A stretch of 64,000 nucleotides of DNA from a bacterium (GTDB lineage Bacteria > Gemmatimonadota > Glassbacteria > GWA2-58-10), in contig JAJFUG010000073.1 of the NCBI GenBank assembly GCA_021372515.1, positions 25,796-89,795 of the forward strand. The letters run 5' to 3'. The notes under the pieces are model-generated. The model worked only from the letters and a program-made list of their open reading frames with translations, did not search any database and had not been told where the DNA came from. A program made the translations under genes and the position numbers. This document shows, piece by piece, positions 25,913 through 37,825 of this stretch; positions within the stretch are counted from its first letter, which is position 1, and every line of letters begins with the position of its first letter.

Positions 25913-26167
25913 CAGCCAGTGCTCCCAAACAGGTCAACGGTGCTTGGATCGGATGGTTATCTATTAAGCCGGGGTTTTCCGGCGGCCAATTTTCGAGTCT
26001 GCTCCCGGAAGGAACGTTAAACTAAAAAGATAGAAATTCAGGCGGGTCTTGTCAATATAAAAAAGGCCCGTATATTAAGGCCATACGGCCTTATGGTTGC
26101 TCAATCTACCAACAATCGGACCATTCTGCAACAGGGAAGGCCGGGTTTGTCTGGGGAGGACAGGTCG

Positions 26168-27169
26168 ATGGAGTATGACATTTACCGCGGGGCGCGCCTG
26201 GAGCGGCTGGCCCTCACGGCGATCGAGCGCGATGACCGGCGTTTCGAGCTGGCCTGGCCCGCGCGGCAGCAGCCGCCCCGGGACAGGGTGGGCCGTGCTA
26301 CGGCGGAGGTTCCACTCTGGGTGCAGGAGATTGCCGGCGGCAGATACCGCCTGGTGCGGGGTTTCAGCCGGTTCGACAGCTTGCGCGAGCTGGGCGCCGA
26401 AAGTTTCCCGGCCCTGGTGTTCGCCGAGGACTGCCCATCCCTGGAGCTTTTCCGGGCCCGCCTGTCCGGCCGCAGCGAGGAGCTTTCCGCGGTGGAGGCG
26501 TCGCGCGCGCTGAAATCTCTGGAGGCGCTGGACGGAGCGGAACAATCCGTCCTGACCGGCTTTCTGCCCCTTCTCGGCCAGCCCGCCACGGAGGGAGCGT
26601 TTTCCTCGTTGCGCGCGCTCGCAAACCTTGAGGAGCCGCTGGCCCGCTGGTGTGCGTCCCAGAAAGCCCCCCTGCCCGAGTGCGTGGTCCTGGCCGGACT
26701 GCCCCGCGAGTCCCAGCGCGGGCTTTTGGTGCTGCTGCGCGCGCTCAACCCCGGCGGGAACCTGCTGCGGCGCTGGCTGGGTTTTTTGACAAGCATATCC
26801 CGACGGAGCGGACAGACGTTGGAGGACATCCTGGCCGACAGCCGCATCACCGATATTCTGCTGGACGCCCAGACTGCGCGCTCGGCCGGGCGCGAGCTGG
26901 TGAGCCGCCGTCTGACCGAGCTGCGCTACCCCGAGAGCACCGCTCTGCGGCAGCGTTTCGCCGAAACGGTCAAAAGCCTGGGCCTGCCCGAGGGGGTGAA
27001 AGTGGAGCCGCCCGAGGCGCTGGAGGGGGATAGGCTTCGGATAAGCTTCGAGCCGGGCACGACCGAGGCCTGGAGCGGGGCCGCCGCGGCCTTGGCCCGC
27101 GCGGCACAGGGACCGGCAGCCGGAGAGCTGTTCCGCCTGCTGGGCGCGCCCGAGCCGGAGAACCGTTGA
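26168..27169 (+). CDS. hypothetical protein with ParB/Srx-like N-terminal domain
   Basis: Start at ATG 26168 with RBS GGAGGA at 26155-26160. The N-terminus resembles ParB-N (IERDDRRFEL ... PLWVQEIAGGRYRLVRGFSRFDSLRELGAESFPALVF). Its stop overlaps the start of the next gene (ATGA). The antisense ORF 26075..27229 is rejected as a GC shadow. Confidence 0.5.
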   Translation: MEYDIYRGARLERLALTAIERDDRRFELAWPARQQPPRDRVGRATAEVPLWVQEIAGGRYRLVRGFSRFDSLRELGAESFPALVFAEDCPSLELFRARLSGRSEELSAVEASRALKSLEALDGAEQSVLTGFLPLLGQPATEGAFSSLRALANLEEPLARWCASQKAPLPECVVLAGLPRESQRGLLVLLRALNPGGNLLRRWLGFLTSISRRSGQTLEDILADSRITDILLDAQTARSAGRELVSRRLTELRYPESTALRQRFAETVKSLGLPEGVKVEPPEALEGDRLRISFEPGTTEAWSGAAAALARAAQGPAAGELFRLLGAPEPENR

Positions 27170-28272
27170 TGCCCCGGCATTTCGATACAGTGTACGTTCA
27201 TCCCGAAATCTCCGCTCACCCGCGCACACGCAGGATCGTGGAGCGGGCCGGCGCGGCCCGGGTGATCGAGCTGCCTGTGGGTGCGGAGAGCCTGGAAAGC
27301 CTTCCGCCCGTGGAAAACCCCAAACGCAGCCTGGCCCTGTTGCCCTACCGCGGCGCGCGGGTGGAGGCCTGCCCCTGCTCCAAGGCCATGCGCTGCTGCC
27401 GCTACCGGGTGCTGCAGCTGGTGGAGGGCTGTCCCTTTGACTGCGCCTACTGCGTGCTGCAGGGCTACCTCAACCGTCCCGCCACCCTGGTCTACCCGGA
27501 ACTGGAAAAGGCCCTGGAGGAATTGGAGCGGGACATGGCGGTCGAGCGGGGCCACCCATCCCGCTACGGCACCGGTGAGCTGGCCGACAGCCTGGCCCTG
27601 GAGGAGCTTACCGGTTTCGTACCGGAACTGATAAGCTTTTTCGCCGCGCACCCGGGGGCCTGGCTGGAGCTGAAGACCAAGAGCGCCCGGGTGACCGAAC
27701 TGCTATCCGTGCCGTCTGTCCCGTCCAATGTGGTCGTGTCCTGGTCGGTCAACGCGCCGACTGTCTGCCGGGGGCTGGAGCACGGGGCCGCCGCGCTGGG
27801 GGCCCGGCTCGACGCGGCGCGCAAAGTTCTGGACGCCGGGTACAGACTGGGATTCCACTTCGACCCCCTGATACGCTTCCCGGACTGGGAGGACCAGTAC
27901 CGGCAGACAGTCGAGCGTATCTACAGCTTCGCCCGTCCCGGGGATATCGCCTGGATCAGCCTGGGCGGCCTGCGCTATGCTCCCTGGCTGGCCCCGTGCC
28001 TGGAGGGGCGGGGTGGGGCCGCGGCGGGCCTTTTGGAGGGCGAGCTTTTCCCGGTGCCGCCGGACGGCAAGTACCGCTACCCGCAGCCGCTGCGGGTGCA
28101 GATGTACCGTCACCTGCACGACTGTATCCGGCGCTTCGACAACCGGGCGTTTGTCTACCTCTGCCTGGAGAGTGAAACTGTCTGGCGCTGGGCGCTGGGT
28201 GTGGAACTGGACCCGCGGGATGAGCTGGCCGTGGAGCGCCTGTTCCCAGCTCCGCCGGGCCGGAGGACCTGA
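27166..28272 (+). CDS. spore-photoproduct-lyase (SPL) family radical SAM protein
   Basis: It has the CxxxCxxC motif GCPFDCAYCVLQ. Collinear matches to B. subtilis SplB blocks include VYVHPE..., LELKTKS, SWSVNAPTV and AGYRLGFHFDPLI. Confidence 0.8.
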   Translation: MMPRHFDTVYVHPEISAHPRTRRIVERAGAARVIELPVGAESLESLPPVENPKRSLALLPYRGARVEACPCSKAMRCCRYRVLQLVEGCPFDCAYCVLQGYLNRPATLVYPELEKALEELERDMAVERGHPSRYGTGELADSLALEELTGFVPELISFFAAHPGAWLELKTKSARVTELLSVPSVPSNVVVSWSVNAPTVCRGLEHGAAALGARLDAARKVLDAGYRLGFHFDPLIRFPDWEDQYRQTVERIYSFARPGDIAWISLGGLRYAPWLAPCLEGRGGAAAGLLEGELFPVPPDGKYRYPQPLRVQMYRHLHDCIRRFDNRAFVYLCLESETVWRWALGVELDPRDELAVERLFPAPPGRRT

Positions 28273-29798: not shown

Positions 29799-30572
29799 TT
29801 ACTTCGTTATCTCCTGCAGGTATCTTTCGATACGGTCACTGTTAGTTCCAAGACTTGAAAACTGTTTATCGCAAACATCGCTGAAACGAGCCAGCACCTT
29901 CCTGTTGATACATTCCTGATCCTCGAAAACGGCCATACTGCGAAACGGAAGTTGCCATTTTTCAAACTGGAGCATAGAAATAGTAGCATCTCGCGCTTTA
30001 TCGTCACCTGGCACGGCAAATACAAAAAGCGGACGCTCCATACCATTAATTTTACAATCTACACTATACATACCCTGTGTATCGTGTATAGGATCGTGCC
30101 AATCGAAAACTCTGCGGCTCTCCGGAATTTTATTAGTCATAAACGCACGAAAATCTTCCATAAATGTTGATCGTACGCGTTCTTTTAAAAGATAGGAGAT
30201 ATCGGTGATTTTCAACAATGCCTGAGTGAAAGAATAAAGCGCATTACCATATTGATCTTCCTGAATGGCAAGTACTAATTCACCATCTCGATCTTCAACT
30301 TTAAATACGGATAATGCATTGCTGATGATCTTTTGCCTGGTTCCTTTTAGAATGTCTTTCTCATCAATATCATACGTGAGGTGCATATAGGTATGTCCTT
30401 CGTCAGACAAAATCCAACTCGCATTATCTCTTTTGAGAGTAATTGCCAGATGGTCTCCGTCTTCAAACATAAAAGGAGTGAATACTCTAAAACGAGCCTC
30501 ACCCTCCTGCTCCAGGCGAATCTGCTCGCATACTCTATTGCGAAAATCTTGTCTAATTGTTTCGGTATTCAT
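29799..30572 (-). CDS. uncharacterised protein B of islet operon (257 aa; possible PD-(D/E)xK-like motif VPGDD...FEK in C-terminal half)
   Basis: Its ATG lies immediately after the TAG stop of the upstream gene, preceded by GAGGAGG. Composition is AT-rich. No confident family assignment. Confidence 0.55.
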   Translation of the reverse strand: MNTETIRQDFRNRVCEQIRLEQEGEARFRVFTPFMFEDGDHLAITLKRDNASWILSDEGHTYMHLTYDIDEKDILKGTRQKIISNALSVFKVEDRDGELVLAIQEDQYGNALYSFTQALLKITDISYLLKERVRSTFMEDFRAFMTNKIPESRRVFDWHDPIHDTQGMYSVDCKINGMERPLFVFAVPGDDKARDATISMLQFEKWQLPFRSMAVFEDQECINRKVLARFSDVCDKQFSSLGTNSDRIERYLQEITK

Positions 30573-31055
30573 CTATACCTCCTCAAACAAATTCTTTTGA
30601 GGATTTCTTGGAAGGTCAAAATTGCAATCGACAAATAAACATTTTACTGCTGAAGTGAAGTCTGAATATCGTTGTGTTGGCTCAGCATAGGTATCTTCTC
30701 TCGCTCCTAATTCTTGATACCGTTCTGTTGCTGAATGGATATGATAATCATAGAATGTGTCGGACTCTATTCCATTTGTGTGCTCGTGACTTTTCCCGTT
30801 GTATCGTCTCAAACGAAATATCTGATTGCTACCTGCTGGACAATGCGCAAGAATGATTGAGAAATCAAGTGCGTTAAAACTGTTTTGCCTCAAGATAAGA
30901 CGAAATTGATTCCCGTTCTCTCCAAAAAAATCAAATTCTTGTTCCTTGTGACCTCGCTTCTCGCGTAGCTTCATTTTATTTCGGTAATCACTCCCAAGGA
31001 CTTTTTTTTCTGAAATCAATTCTGTAATCTCGGTATCAGAGTATTTTGCAGCCAT
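30573..31055 (-). CDS. uncharacterised protein A of islet operon (160 aa; His-rich segment KSHEHTNG...YDYHIHSATE, possible Rx4-6H HEPN-like motif)
   Basis: The RBS GGAGGAG lies 10 nt upstream of ATG 31055. It is translationally coupled to protein B. Confidence 0.55.
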   Translation of the reverse strand: MAAKYSDTEITELISEKKVLGSDYRNKMKLREKRGHKEQEFDFFGENGNQFRLILRQNSFNALDFSIILAHCPAGSNQIFRLRRYNGKSHEHTNGIESDTFYDYHIHSATERYQELGAREDTYAEPTQRYSDFTSAVKCLFVDCNFDLPRNPQKNLFEEV

Positions 31056-36165: not shown

Positions 36166-36281
36166 TCGGGTGGAATTCATTTGTTTCTTGACAGCAGTCG
36201 CATTCCGGGGGAAAATGGTCCCAGGGCTTGCAGTACGGCCCACCCACAACGGACGACCGAACTCTTCCCTGGAGGCCTTTG

Positions 36282-36734
36282 ATGCGCTGGTCTTATCTTG
36301 TCGTGGCCCTGCTGACGCTGCTGGTTCTGGGCTGGGCGATGCGGATGGGTGGGGAAATAATGATGGCCGTGGACCTGCCGAGCCTGGCGCTGGTGCTTGC
36401 GCCCGCTCTCCTGATGTCGCTCGCCACCCACGGTCCGGCTGAAATGGCGGGTTGTTTCGCAGTGGCCTTCAAAAAAGAGGGAGTCGAGCCGGCGGCGCTG
36501 GAGAAAGGGATTCTGTTTTTCAAGACCCTGCAGGCCTATTTCACAATCAGCGCCGTAATATCTTTCCTTATGGGTCTTATTATTCTTCTGGCTTCGGCGG
36601 AGGATTACGCGACAATCTGCCCCGGACTGGCCGTGTCGATTATTTCGGTGCTTTATGCCTACCTTCTGGCCCTGCTGGTCACGGTGCCGTTCAGGACCGC
36701 GCTCGAAAAGAAAAAGATCGAGTTGGGCCGCTGA
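36282..36734 (+). CDS. hypothetical integral membrane protein (about 150 aa, 4 TM)
   Basis: RBS GGAGG lies 6 nt upstream of ATG 36282. It has hydrophobic helices throughout. No family assigned. Confidence 0.5.
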   Translation: MRWSYLVVALLTLLVLGWAMRMGGEIMMAVDLPSLALVLAPALLMSLATHGPAEMAGCFAVAFKKEGVEPAALEKGILFFKTLQAYFTISAVISFLMGLIILLASAEDYATICPGLAVSIISVLYAYLLALLVTVPFRTALEKKKIELGR

Positions 36735-36860
36735 GTGTGGAATGAAAAATCTGTCTTGTATCTTGAGATTAATGTGAGCCTCGATGGAAGAAAGGTTCGC
36801 TTTACTGCGTTGTATTTTAAGAGGTTGGAATGAGCATGGTGGGAAATATGCTAATAAATC

Positions 36861-36889
36861 TTGACAAACAAGAGTAAAGGAATTATAAA
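36861..36889 (+). promoter_or_regulatory. consensus sigma70 promoter (TTGACA, 17 nt, TATAAA) inside the islet
   Basis: The -35 TTGACA is at 36861-36866 and the -10 TATAAA at 36884-36889, with an exact 17-bp spacer. Confidence 0.5.
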
Positions 36890-36895
36890 TTAAAC

Positions 36896-36954
36896 AATCC
36901 ACGTATGTGGAGGTGGATGGCTTTGCCATCGGAGCCCGCAAGGGCTCTTTTTTT
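36896..36954 (+). ncRNA. candidate small RNA (about 58 nt, three hairpins, intrinsic terminator GAGCCC-GCAA-GGGCTC + T7)
   Basis: A promoter lies immediately upstream. The hairpins are CCACGTATGTGG, ATGGCTTTGCCAT and the terminator stem at 36932-36947 with T7 at 36948-36954. No ORF is present. It converges on the 3' end of the DUF3800-like gene. Confidence 0.3.
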
Positions 36955-37825
36955 ATCCTATAAATTTTTTCCCAGAACCAGCTATCCTGCCGTTTGATTG
37001 ATAATATTTATTCTGCAATATCGCTACTATCTGTCTTGAAAATACTCCGAGCTCTCTCTCAAATAAATTTTGCTCAGACAAAATTTCACACCAGCTCGGG
37101 TGGGCAAGAAGATCAACTAATTGAAGACCTGCGATGTTATTGCTTTTCTGCTTGACTTTTAATTGTGAGCTTGTGAGGTGTTGTGTAAGATAACCTTTTT
37201 CAAGGTAATGAGTTCCTTTGTTGTAGAGATTGTTAAAGGCTTCTTTTAATTTCTTGTCCTCTTTTCCTCCTCTGGATTCTGCAAGAACATCCCCAGTAGC
37301 TCCTGTACTTCTTAGAAAGAAAATATATCTTTCAAGCATAACTTCCAAACAATAGTGGTAAGGATGATATATCCAAGTGGAATATGTTTCTTTATGTGCT
37401 TTCTTATCTATGCATATGGTTATAACTTTGAAATCCCACCTTCTCAAGCAATTAAGTAGTTCGGAATTGAATTGCTTTTCCGTTTCTGGATCAGAAAGCA
37501 CTGAGAATACATCTCGTTTGTTTACAATGTCTTTGCGATGCAAGATCACTGGATCATCAGGGTGCTGTCCGAAGAATCTTTTCTTTAGGGACTCCATTTC
37601 TGGAAATACGACATCATCAATGTGGTCTAATTTGAAAATGACACCAGTCAAACTTAAGAATCTATGAATGGGATTTGAGGAGCTTCCCAGGTCTGGATTG
37701 CCGACTTCATCGATATACATTCTGTATTTGGCTGCTGAATTCATGATGGTATCAATTCCACTGATGTTTGCTAATATAGAGAACCAAATTATGTCGTTCA
37801 TGTTTTGCTGTAAAACTGAATTCAT
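36953..37825 (-). CDS. DUF3800-like protein (N-terminal MYIDEVGNP motif)
   Basis: It is AT-rich. The motif RMYIDEVG sits near the N-terminus as in DUF3800 family members. The start is ambiguous (ATG 37825 or ATG 37720). It lies 2 nt downstream of the pyk stop. Confidence 0.55.
   Translation of the reverse strand: MNSVLQQNMNDIIWFSILANISGIDTIMNSAAKYRMYIDEVGNPDLGSSSNPIHRFLSLTGVIFKLDHIDDVVFPEMESLKKRFFGQHPDDPVILHRKDIVNKRDVFSVLSDPETEKQFNSELLNCLRRWDFKVITICIDKKAHKETYSTWIYHPYHYCLEVMLERYIFFLRSTGATGDVLAESRGGKEDKKLKEAFNNLYNKGTHYLEKGYLTQHLTSSQLKVKQKSNNIAGLQLVDLLAHPSWCEILSEQNLFERELGVFSRQIVAILQNKYYQSNGRIAGSGKKFIG

Follow-up and report, generated by a model that had tools for sequence, protein, structure and literature searches.

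What do a ParB-like protein and a relative of spore photoproduct lyase (SPL) do side by side on the chromosome of a bacterium from a non-sporulating lineage? The question is raised by two adjacent genes in a stretch of 64,000 nucleotides of the Glassbacteria contig JAJFUG010000073.1, which was analysed as a whole and is called the window here. The upstream open reading frame (ORF), ORF1, encodes the ParB-like protein, and the downstream one, ORF2, encodes a radical S-adenosylmethionine (SAM) enzyme of the SPL superfamily. The two genes were found paired in many phyla, and the most economical reading is that their products would be the two components of a module that carries out radical chemistry on DNA, either repair or modification. 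The module is widespread and combines members of two known families, and the literature searched does not describe it: no paper on ParB paired with SPL or with a radical SAM enzyme was found in full-text searches.

Gene arrangement

According to the ORF calls, ORF1 (26168..27169, + strand; ATG at 26168, TGA at 27167-27169) encodes 333 aa and ORF2 (27169..28272, + strand; ATG at 27169, stop at 28270-28272) encodes 367 aa. ORF1 is identical to the NCBI protein LLH00_07790, which comes from a metagenome-assembled genome (MAG) and is annotated as 'hypothetical protein' of a 'bacterium'. A Shine-Dalgarno-like GGAGG read from the sequence (26155..26159, + strand) lies 8 nt 5' of the ORF1 start.

The junction between the two genes (27157..27171, + strand) consists of GGAGA (27157-27161) within the end of ORF1, followed by TGATG. 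The GGAGA ribosome-binding site is 7 nt 5' of the ORF2 start. The letters read CGT TGA TGC, with a single A common to the stop of ORF1 and the start of ORF2. The original prediction had described an ATGA overlap; the genes do overlap, and the motif is TGATG. In relatives, the overlaps are 1 nt or 4 nt. Translation of ORF2 is probably coupled to that of ORF1, since an overlap of this kind is the arrangement expected for it. An in-frame TTG at 27166 was rejected as an alternative start of ORF2 because homologues begin at the ATG.

Persistence of the pair across phyla

Scanning one genome per species yielded at least 581 relatives of the enzyme, of which the 80 best-scoring loci were retained. 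Pair counts are based on the 70 of these with at least 1 kb of upstream sequence. A homologue of ORF1 was directly upstream and on the same strand in 51 of the 70 loci, and the approximate gap between the two genes was ≤20 nt in 39 of these 51 adjacent pairs. In two further loci, the homologue was on the same strand and split off by inserted genes, and in one (L073), there was only a weak ParB-like match on the opposite strand, ~2.5 kb away. It was missing in the remaining 16. Starting from the partner, the enzyme was found in 19 of 21 loci with enough downstream DNA. The pair was also present in all eight metagenome contigs looked up via the enzyme (8/8), with varying flanks. No ParB-like neighbour was found beside one canonical splB gene and one gene of the TIGR03886 family.

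Carriers of the pair are labelled Glassbacteria/Gemmatimonadota, Thermodesulfobacteriota, KSB1, Marinimicrobia, Aminicenantes, Spirochaetota, Binatia, Caldithrix, Aerophobus and others; taxonomic labels of MAGs are unreliable. The original prediction had assumed a non-sporulating context, and this holds for the first six of these, which are non-endospore-forming groups. When the enzyme sequences were arranged in a neighbour-joining tree, every major clade included members with the partner; Nitrospinota and a small number of deltaproteobacterial lineages account for most losses of adjacency. Over at least ten phyla, the flanking genes have turned over and the two genes have stayed together. At 51 of 70 loci, the pairing is far beyond chance. 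Conservation of the gene neighbourhood had been proposed as a check on the prediction, and the pair came through it.

The context of the pair is chromosomal and of a housekeeping kind, with secDF and esterase genes as neighbours. PADLOC-DB models matched none of ORF1, ORF2 and the glycosyltransferase described below (0 families). No relatives of the pair were found in IMG/VR viral contigs, and plasmid and phage collections gave remote SPL matches only (~24% identity in phage records). Neither a restriction partner nor a phage or defence association of the pair was found. The link to defence modules that had been suggested from the ParB-like domain has no PADLOC, phage or plasmid support and was dropped.

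Several loci depart from the common arrangement or from their labels. L011, L012, L016, L018, L026 and L043 are titled 'Chloroflexi', 'archaeon', 'Cytophagia' or 'Clostridia', and their genes nest in Glassbacteria-like or KSB1-like clades, which suggests mis-binned or mislabelled MAGs. In L014 (2862-5611), the ParB-like gene is separated from the radical SAM gene by two genes on the opposite strand (474 and 412 aa), and L013 carries an insertion of 1.4 kb at this position.

In the partnerless deltaproteobacterial loci L017 (5398-5976) and L027 (5240-5998), a gene for a THEP1-type NTPase (PRK13695, above cutoff) is directly upstream of the enzyme gene. This NTPase may be there by coincidence, or it may be a nucleotide-dependent partner in place of the ParB-like protein. 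A general alternative partner in partnerless loci was rejected, as the upstream genes are inconsistent (THEP1-like NTPase, DnaJ-like protein, aldo-keto reductase, HD response regulator, LAM-like radical SAM protein).

A divergent member of the SPL superfamily

ORF2 passes the Pfam SPL model PF20903 (88 bits, cutoff 27). It fails both NCBIfam models of the superfamily: TIGR04070, the equivalog of true SPL (90.7 bits, cutoff 400), and TIGR03886, the SPL family of non-spore-formers (44.6 bits, cutoff 437.55). The generic radical SAM model PF04055 reached no more than 13.3 bits, because the SPL-specific model covers that region. A profile built from 16 sequences of the ORF2 family aligned with the SPL of Geobacillus thermodenitrificans (4FHC) over profile positions 4-325 of 372 (E ~1e-40), and the likeness extends over the N-terminal domain, the core and the C-terminal region. 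All SPL motifs quoted in the original prediction are present in ORF2 (C88PFDC92AYC95, ELKTKS, SVNAP, AGYRLGF). By these comparisons, ORF2 is a full-length but divergent member of the SPL superfamily, in a third, previously undescribed clade. Its family comprises >1,500 protein clusters.

Conservation of residues was counted over 78 full-length sequences of the ORF2 family, and the functional residues of SPL were mapped from Benjdia et al. (PMC3467042). The radical SAM cluster motif C88-x3-C92-x-Y94-C95 (27430..27453, + strand) is invariant and aligns with C90, C94, Y96 and C97 of SPL. The cluster cysteines C90, C94 and C97 of SPL correspond to C88, C92 and C95, and the SAM-binding residues Y96, K174 and S195 to Y94, K171 and S193. 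R273, which contacts both SAM and the lesion phosphate, corresponds to R269, and K309, a further ligand of the lesion phosphate, to K301. All of these positions are conserved in ≥95% of the family. In SPL, Lys309 and Arg273 hold the phosphate bridge of the dinucleotide lesion (PMC3467042). K301 is part of the motif D299-G-K301-Y-R303-Y304 (28063..28080, + strand; ≥95% conserved), which falls in the region of the SPL beta-hairpin and Lys309. The loop of the N-terminal domain that holds the 3' base in SPL is retained as well.

Four other functional residues of SPL are lost. The hydrogen donor Cys140 is replaced by an invariant Glu137, and Tyr98 of the radical relay by Val96 (Ile or Val in the family). 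Of the two thymine contacts, Arg193 is replaced by Ser191 and Glu268 falls in an unaligned insertion. Judging from the alignment, ORF2 keeps the SAM machinery and the ligands of the dinucleotide phosphate, and the residues for base recognition and radical relay are exchanged. The original prediction of an SPL-type lesion lyase is borne out for superfamily membership over the whole length, and not for the residues that specify the spore photoproduct.

The family has a cysteine signature of its own, with seven invariant cysteines (C68, C76, C77, C88, C92, C95 and C332). Three of them lie in the segment C68-P-C-S-K-A-M-R-C76-C77 (27370..27399, + strand), where C68 is conserved in 100%, C76 in 99% and C77 in 100%. 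C68 aligns with Ser76 of the G. thermodenitrificans SPL, directly so in the alignment with the S76C/C140A mutant 4RH0. Clostridium SPLs have an alternative hydrogen-donor cysteine at the Ser76 position, near the 3' thymine (PMC3467042). C68 occupies this Clostridium-type position, and we propose it as a candidate donor. The C76-C77 pair is within a 7-residue insertion that is absent from one canonical SplB and one TIGR03886 protein. The C-terminal strand Y330-L-C332-L-E334 (28156..28170, + strand) carries the seventh cysteine, with Y330, C332 and E334 conserved in ≥95%. From the order of secondary structures, Y330 may be the counterpart of the substrate-binding Tyr339 of SPL; the aligner left Y330 unplaced.

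Could ORF2 be a true spore photoproduct lyase, with 5-thyminyl-5,6-dihydrothymine as the lesion that it repairs in an organism without spores? The score above the Pfam SPL threshold, the full-length alignment and the cysteine at the Clostridium-type donor position would fit. The scores far under the NCBIfam cutoffs, the loss of Arg193, Glu268, Tyr98 and Cys140, the extra CC insertion and the extra C-terminal segment do not. To our knowledge, moreover, the carriers have neither endospores nor the A-form DNA bound by small acid-soluble spore proteins in which the spore photoproduct forms. Such an activity is barely conceivable, and ORF2 should not be named spore photoproduct lyase. Genes of the pair are currently annotated as 'hypothetical', 'ParB N-terminal domain-containing', 'radical SAM', 'DNA photolyase' or 'spore photoproduct lyase'; the last of these is probably wrong for the clade.

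A ParB-family partner with degenerate nucleotide motifs

The partner is harder to place from one sequence. With ORF1 alone, Pfam gave no matches (0), and the sole NCBIfam match was SbnI, a protein of the ParB/sulfiredoxin (Srx) fold (E 0.03). A profile of nine close relatives matched Noc, Spo0J and ParB in the PDB (E 8e-9 to 4e-8) over positions 33-181, that is, from the N-terminal domain into the helix-turn-helix region. The AlphaFold (AF2) model of ORF1 has a predicted local distance difference test (pLDDT) score of 84.3 and a predicted template modelling (pTM) score of 0.71. Its top Foldseek matches are Noc, ParB, KorB and PadC, with a probability of 1.00 and an E value of 3e-6 to Noc and ParB. 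VirB structures are also among the fold matches, and SbnI, SerK and sulfiredoxin match weakly, at fold level (Srx E 0.02 or weaker). The orthologue P0137 passes the NCBIfam model TIGR00180 (parB_part; 61.6, cutoff 58.45) over model positions 10-166 of 186, and other relatives of ORF1 have weak PF02195 matches. By profile and predicted structure, ORF1 is assigned to the ParB family (Noc, Spo0J, KorB), with the N-domain and a putative helix-turn-helix region.

The original prediction of a ParB-N/sulfiredoxin-like partner in place of SplA is borne out in its first half: the upstream gene encodes a ParB-like protein of 333 aa, and its likeness to the ParB family proper was seen in both sequence and predicted structure. 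Likeness to sulfiredoxin does not go beyond the fold. ORF1 as a sulfiredoxin was rejected, as the segment equivalent to FGGCHR reads RGFSR, without the catalytic cysteine.

Two of the motifs that bind cytidine triphosphate (CTP) in ParB are degenerate in the window. Box II reads R64-G-F-S-R68 (26357..26371, + strand), with Ser in place of the first Arg; it is GERR in ParB and G-x-[KR]-R in most orthologues. The region of box III, which is ENxxR in the ParB CTPase clamps, reads LSGRS..EELSAVE, without the E-N, which is also lost in the clade of the window. In a census of 61 orthologues of ORF1, box II was present as G-x-[KR]-R in 39, the E-N of box III in 25 and both in 24. Orthologues with both motifs are mostly from Thermodesulfobacteriota, KSB1 and Caldithrix, and both motifs are lost in the orthologues of Marinimicrobia. 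The ancestor of ORF1 was probably a CTP-binding protein of the ParB type. Read from the motifs, nucleotide switching appears to have proved dispensable while the pairing did not. This repeated loss of CTP motifs with the pairing kept is a natural experiment on the ParB fold apart from CTP switching.

The alignments run through the helix-turn-helix region of Noc/ParB to profile positions 156-190, and the helix-turn-helix residues are poorly conserved between phyla. The C-terminal domain (residues 185-333; 26720..27166, + strand) is a helical bundle with a small beta-alpha unit and carries the motifs PGGN, RYP and PPxxxEG. No solved relative of this domain and no ParB-like match to it were found. 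Between phyla, the partner is 20-25% identical, compared with ~40% for the enzyme. A word-indexed search found only nine relatives of ORF1, and an exhaustive profile search found 355 representatives at E ≤1e-30. There were no fusions of the ParB-like protein and the enzyme among the matches listed.

Members of the ParB family include CTP-dependent transcription regulators, of which KorB and VirB are among the fold matches of ORF1. The ParB-like protein may be the transcriptional regulator of the operon only, as a functional analogue of SplA in the splAB operon or of the repressor KorB, with the enzyme working alone. Its faster evolution, the 16 of 70 loci without an adjacent partner and the canonical SPL and the TIGR03886 protein, which work without a ParB-like neighbour, agree with such a role. 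Other observations do not. In most lineages, stop and start overlap or nearly overlap, which suggests stoichiometric co-production. The C-terminal domain is well folded and conserved, with invariant motifs that a simple repressor would not need. No conserved palindromic operator was found upstream; more generally, the sequences upstream of ORF1 in the window and in its closest relatives L001 and L003 contain no operator or parS-like palindrome and no inverted repeats. Lastly, the pairing was kept across the ten or more phyla despite the changing flanks. We regard a role as regulator alone as quite unlikely.

A ParABS partition system was also rejected. No ParA ATPase gene is adjacent to the pair, where secD and the radical SAM gene are the neighbours of ORF1; there are no inverted repeats upstream, and the C-terminal domain has no ParB-like match.

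A glycosyltransferase beside many of the pairs

Clustering of the neighbouring genes brought out a specific soluble GT2 glycosyltransferase of ~285 aa that is ~50% identical across phyla. Its best match in the PDB is a chondroitin synthase domain (E 1e-37). In 24 of the 62 genome loci with a pair, the gene that directly precedes the ParB-like gene is that of the GT2; it is found at L005 (6149-6913), L087 (5097-5963), L089 (5116-5949) and 21 further ones. Among its carriers is the sister clade of the window (L005, L007, L009, L012 and L089). A metagenome search anchored on the GT2 gave 80 loci. The ParB-like gene came directly after it in 32, of which 19 also show the enzyme and most others are truncated. 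The pair was absent in 33 GT2 loci with enough downstream sequence. The GT2 gene is absent from the whole window and from L001 and L003, and also beside most of the Marinimicrobia pairs and several KSB1 pairs. As it is missing in the window, L001 and L003, it is an accessory or ancestral neighbour and not part of the core. A SpoU-type methylase gene adjoins the pair in L087 and is nearby in L086, and GHMP kinase genes are also among the neighbours of the pair.

These neighbours could point to hypermodification of a DNA or RNA base. The SPL-type enzyme would activate or rearrange a base radical, the GT2 would add a sugar and the ParB-like protein would target the reaction, and the GT2 step would have been lost or moved in the lineage of the window. 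Linkage was found in both directions, from the pair (the 24 loci, including the sister clade of the window, L087 and L089) and from the GT2 (32 of 65 metagenome loci with enough sequence). There is a precedent in gp53 of phage M6, a protein of the SPL fold that installs a DNA modification (PMC8989533), and the SpoU-type methylase in L087 and L086 would fit too. Nevertheless, there is no GT2 in the window or its closest relatives, nor beside most pairs of Marinimicrobia and several of KSB1. Half of the GT2 orthologues are unlinked to the pair, and the protein looks like an ordinary polysaccharide glycosyltransferase. The lack of a restriction partner and of any phage or defence association speaks against hypermodification as well. 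On balance, we consider it unlikely.

The same neighbours bear on a further explanation, in which the substrate is not a nucleic acid polymer at all. The enzyme could act on a nucleotide or nucleotide sugar bound by the ParB/Srx-type domain, or the ParB-like protein itself could be post-translationally modified. The ParB/Srx fold includes small-molecule kinases (the weak matches SbnI and SerK), GT2 and GHMP kinase genes occur nearby, the four extra invariant cysteines point to chemistry other than that of SPL and the invariant Pro/Gly motifs of the partner (RYP, FEG) could be sites of modification. This is difficult to reconcile with the whole SPL architecture being kept, including R269, K301 and the N-terminal loop for the 3' base. 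Moreover, the partner appears to keep the ParB helix-turn-helix region besides its nucleotide-binding domain, and several clades can do without the nucleotide motifs and still have the pairing. A substrate of this kind is decidedly improbable.

Two side observations concern the neighbourhood of the GT2. A very basic protein with a Rho_N (SAP-like) domain is encoded 5' of the cluster of GT2, ParB-like and radical SAM genes in L153 (1222-1581), L028, L048, L058, L061, L070 and L071. This small Rho_N-domain protein was rejected as a fourth component, as it is confined to one Syntrophales-like clade. In the related metagenome contigs L118 (6812-10762) and L129 (3908-7861), the GT2 and ParB-like genes are followed by ~4 kb nearly without ORFs >100 aa; in this stretch, tblastn found no radical SAM gene and Rfam gave no match.

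Proposed function

Both components belong to DNA-directed families and the residues that hold the phosphate are kept, and hence a module for radical chemistry on DNA is the most economical reading. The analysis shows the anatomy of the locus, its family placement and its conservation; everything said on function is inference, and DNA repair or modification, as originally predicted, is a reasonable one. The substrate is argued not to be the spore photoproduct, because the thymine-specific contacts are lost and many carriers live in dark, anoxic habitats. That the module repairs another cross-linked or bridged lesion is a tentative proposal, which we rate just short of probable. Our leading guess for the substrate is a base lesion with a methylene bridge or another cross-link, of a kind whose formation needs neither light nor oxygen.

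Several findings weigh against a DNA module of this kind, or against parts of it. The thymine contacts Arg193 and Glu268 of SPL are not conserved in ORF2, nor are Cys140 and Tyr98. The median predicted pI of the enzyme is ~7, with no sign of a strongly basic DNA-binding protein. The helix-turn-helix region of the partner is poorly conserved between phyla. With the CTP motifs lost in the clade of the window and in Marinimicrobia, neither specific DNA binding nor clamp activity of the partner can be taken for granted. An adjacent partner is missing in the 16 loci mentioned above. Many carriers live in dark sediments, where ultraviolet lesions are irrelevant. The conserved GT2 neighbour suits a biosynthetic or modification role better than repair.

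The proposed mechanism starts from a chromosomal, vertically inherited two-gene operon whose products would act jointly on nucleic acid, most likely DNA. The genes would be co-transcribed from a sigma-70-like promoter and translationally coupled. The ParB-like protein would bind DNA via its N-domain and helix-turn-helix region, and its family-specific C-terminal domain may recruit or position the enzyme. Orthologues with all three ParB CTP motifs may be CTP-gated clamps; the degenerate motifs of the window make a passive adaptor the likelier role for ORF1. The enzyme would bind SAM on the [4Fe-4S] cluster of C88, C92 and C95 via the same residues as SPL, and a dinucleotide-type substrate would be held by its phosphate through R269 and K301. 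The 5'-deoxyadenosyl radical would then abstract a hydrogen atom from the damaged or target base, and C68 would give a hydrogen atom back after bond scission or rearrangement. C76, C77 and C332 may stand in for the missing Tyr98 as a thiol relay, or they may bind an auxiliary Fe-S cluster.

A more far-reaching version can be imagined, in which an originally CTP-gated clamp of the ParB type carries the enzyme along the chromosome for base chemistry that is independent of oxygen and light. This could be the reversal of methylene-bridged or cross-linked lesions formed under anoxia or, together with the GT2, the making of a glycosylated hypermodified base, an anaerobic counterpart of base J, with the four extra cysteines as auxiliary Fe-S cluster or thiol relay, which SPL does not have. 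We hold this to be a long shot. If the module does act on DNA, it would represent either a new DNA repair reaction for dark, anoxic conditions or a new chromosomal base modification, and a ParB-type protein would for the first time be the subunit that delivers or targets an enzyme.

Upstream signals and other features of the window

The secD-secF genes are upstream of the operon and divergent from it, and the intergenic region between secD and ORF1 is 255 nt long. A consensus scan gave 3 sites, compared with 0.3 expected. The candidate sigma-70-like promoter for the operon (26049..26076, + strand) consists of TTGTCA, a 16-nt spacer and TATATT. The promoter block CTTGTCAATATAAA...CGTATATTAAGGC is kept in L001 and L003, whose proteins are only 47-79% identical. 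At 26015-26090 and the equivalent positions of L001 and L003, two strongly conserved AT-rich blocks were noted, AACGTTAAACTAAAAAGATAGAAAT and CTTGTCAATATAAA..CGTATATTAAGGC. They are best read as putative overlapping divergent promoters; a regulatory site also could fit. An Rfam scan of the ~90-nt leader and of the whole window found no riboswitch or RNA element, and a tRNA scan of the window found none.

Two islands of low GC content lie further downstream. The first (29799-31055, - strand) is a two-gene insert of ~51% GC, compared with 63-67% around it. One of its genes is for a DUF1828 protein, with a match to PDC-M24B, a candidate defence family of PADLOC (70 bits), and the other for a 160-aa protein of no family. 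The gene pair is found in L003 and is missing from the same place, between the esterase and PAS genes, in L001; with this presence and absence, the insert resembles a small mobile or defence cassette. The second island (36177-37825, - strand; ~48% GC) encodes a 254-aa protein of no family and a DUF3800 protein, beside a pyruvate kinase gene.

Comparison with known systems

SplB (TIGR04070; 4FHC) is of the same superfamily and architecture as ORF2, with a profile alignment of ~320 residues, the CxxxCxYC motif, the ligands of SAM and phosphate and C68 at the position of Ser76. The two are ~24% identical. ORF2 differs in lacking Cys140, Tyr98, Arg193 and Glu268 and in having the 7-residue CC insertion, a longer C-terminus with YLCxE and seven invariant cysteines. 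It is encoded with a ParB-like gene and no SplA, in non-sporulating, mostly anaerobic phyla. The locus is accordingly not a splA-splB operon, as its upstream gene encodes the 333-aa ParB-like protein instead of the small SplA and the closest taxa are MAGs labelled Glassbacteria or Gemmatimonadota.

The TIGR03886 protein of Aureimonas sp. AU20 (WP_061978232) is an SPL relative in non-spore-formers and is ~29% identical to ORF2 over the core. Unlike ORF2, it keeps a cysteine of the Cys140 type, lacks the CP...CC and YLC cysteines and has no ParB-like neighbour.

The radical SAM isomerase gp53 of phage M6 is SPL-like and takes part in the hypermodification of thymidine (PMC8989533). It has the SPL fold in common with ORF2 and acts on DNA for an end other than repair of the spore photoproduct, which makes it a precedent for modification. 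In contrast to ORF2, it is phage-encoded, in a cluster with a kinase, aGPT-Pplase and an enzyme dependent on pyridoxal phosphate (PLP), and has no ParB-like partner.

On the side of the partner, the CTP-dependent clamps ParB, Noc and KorB (7NFU, 7BNK, 6SDK, 8QA9) have the N-domain in common with ORF1, and the likeness runs on into their helix-turn-helix region. A conceptual analogue of the pair may be seen in DndB, the ParB-superfamily accessory of Fe-S-dependent DNA phosphorothioation by DndABCDE (PMC10853773), which is likewise encoded beside a DNA-altering Fe-S enzyme. The Dnd system differs in that DndB is from another branch of the superfamily, DndC is a PP-loop enzyme and not a radical SAM TIM-barrel, and the genes are on mobile, defence-linked islands.

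SPL and gp53 of phage M6 are the only radical SAM enzymes that we found described as acting on DNA. Beside them, the clade of ORF2 would be the third of the SPL superfamily, a large and taxonomically broad one, marked by a cysteine signature of its own and by a ParB-family partner that is nearly obligate, in uncultivated, anaerobic, non-spore-forming phyla.

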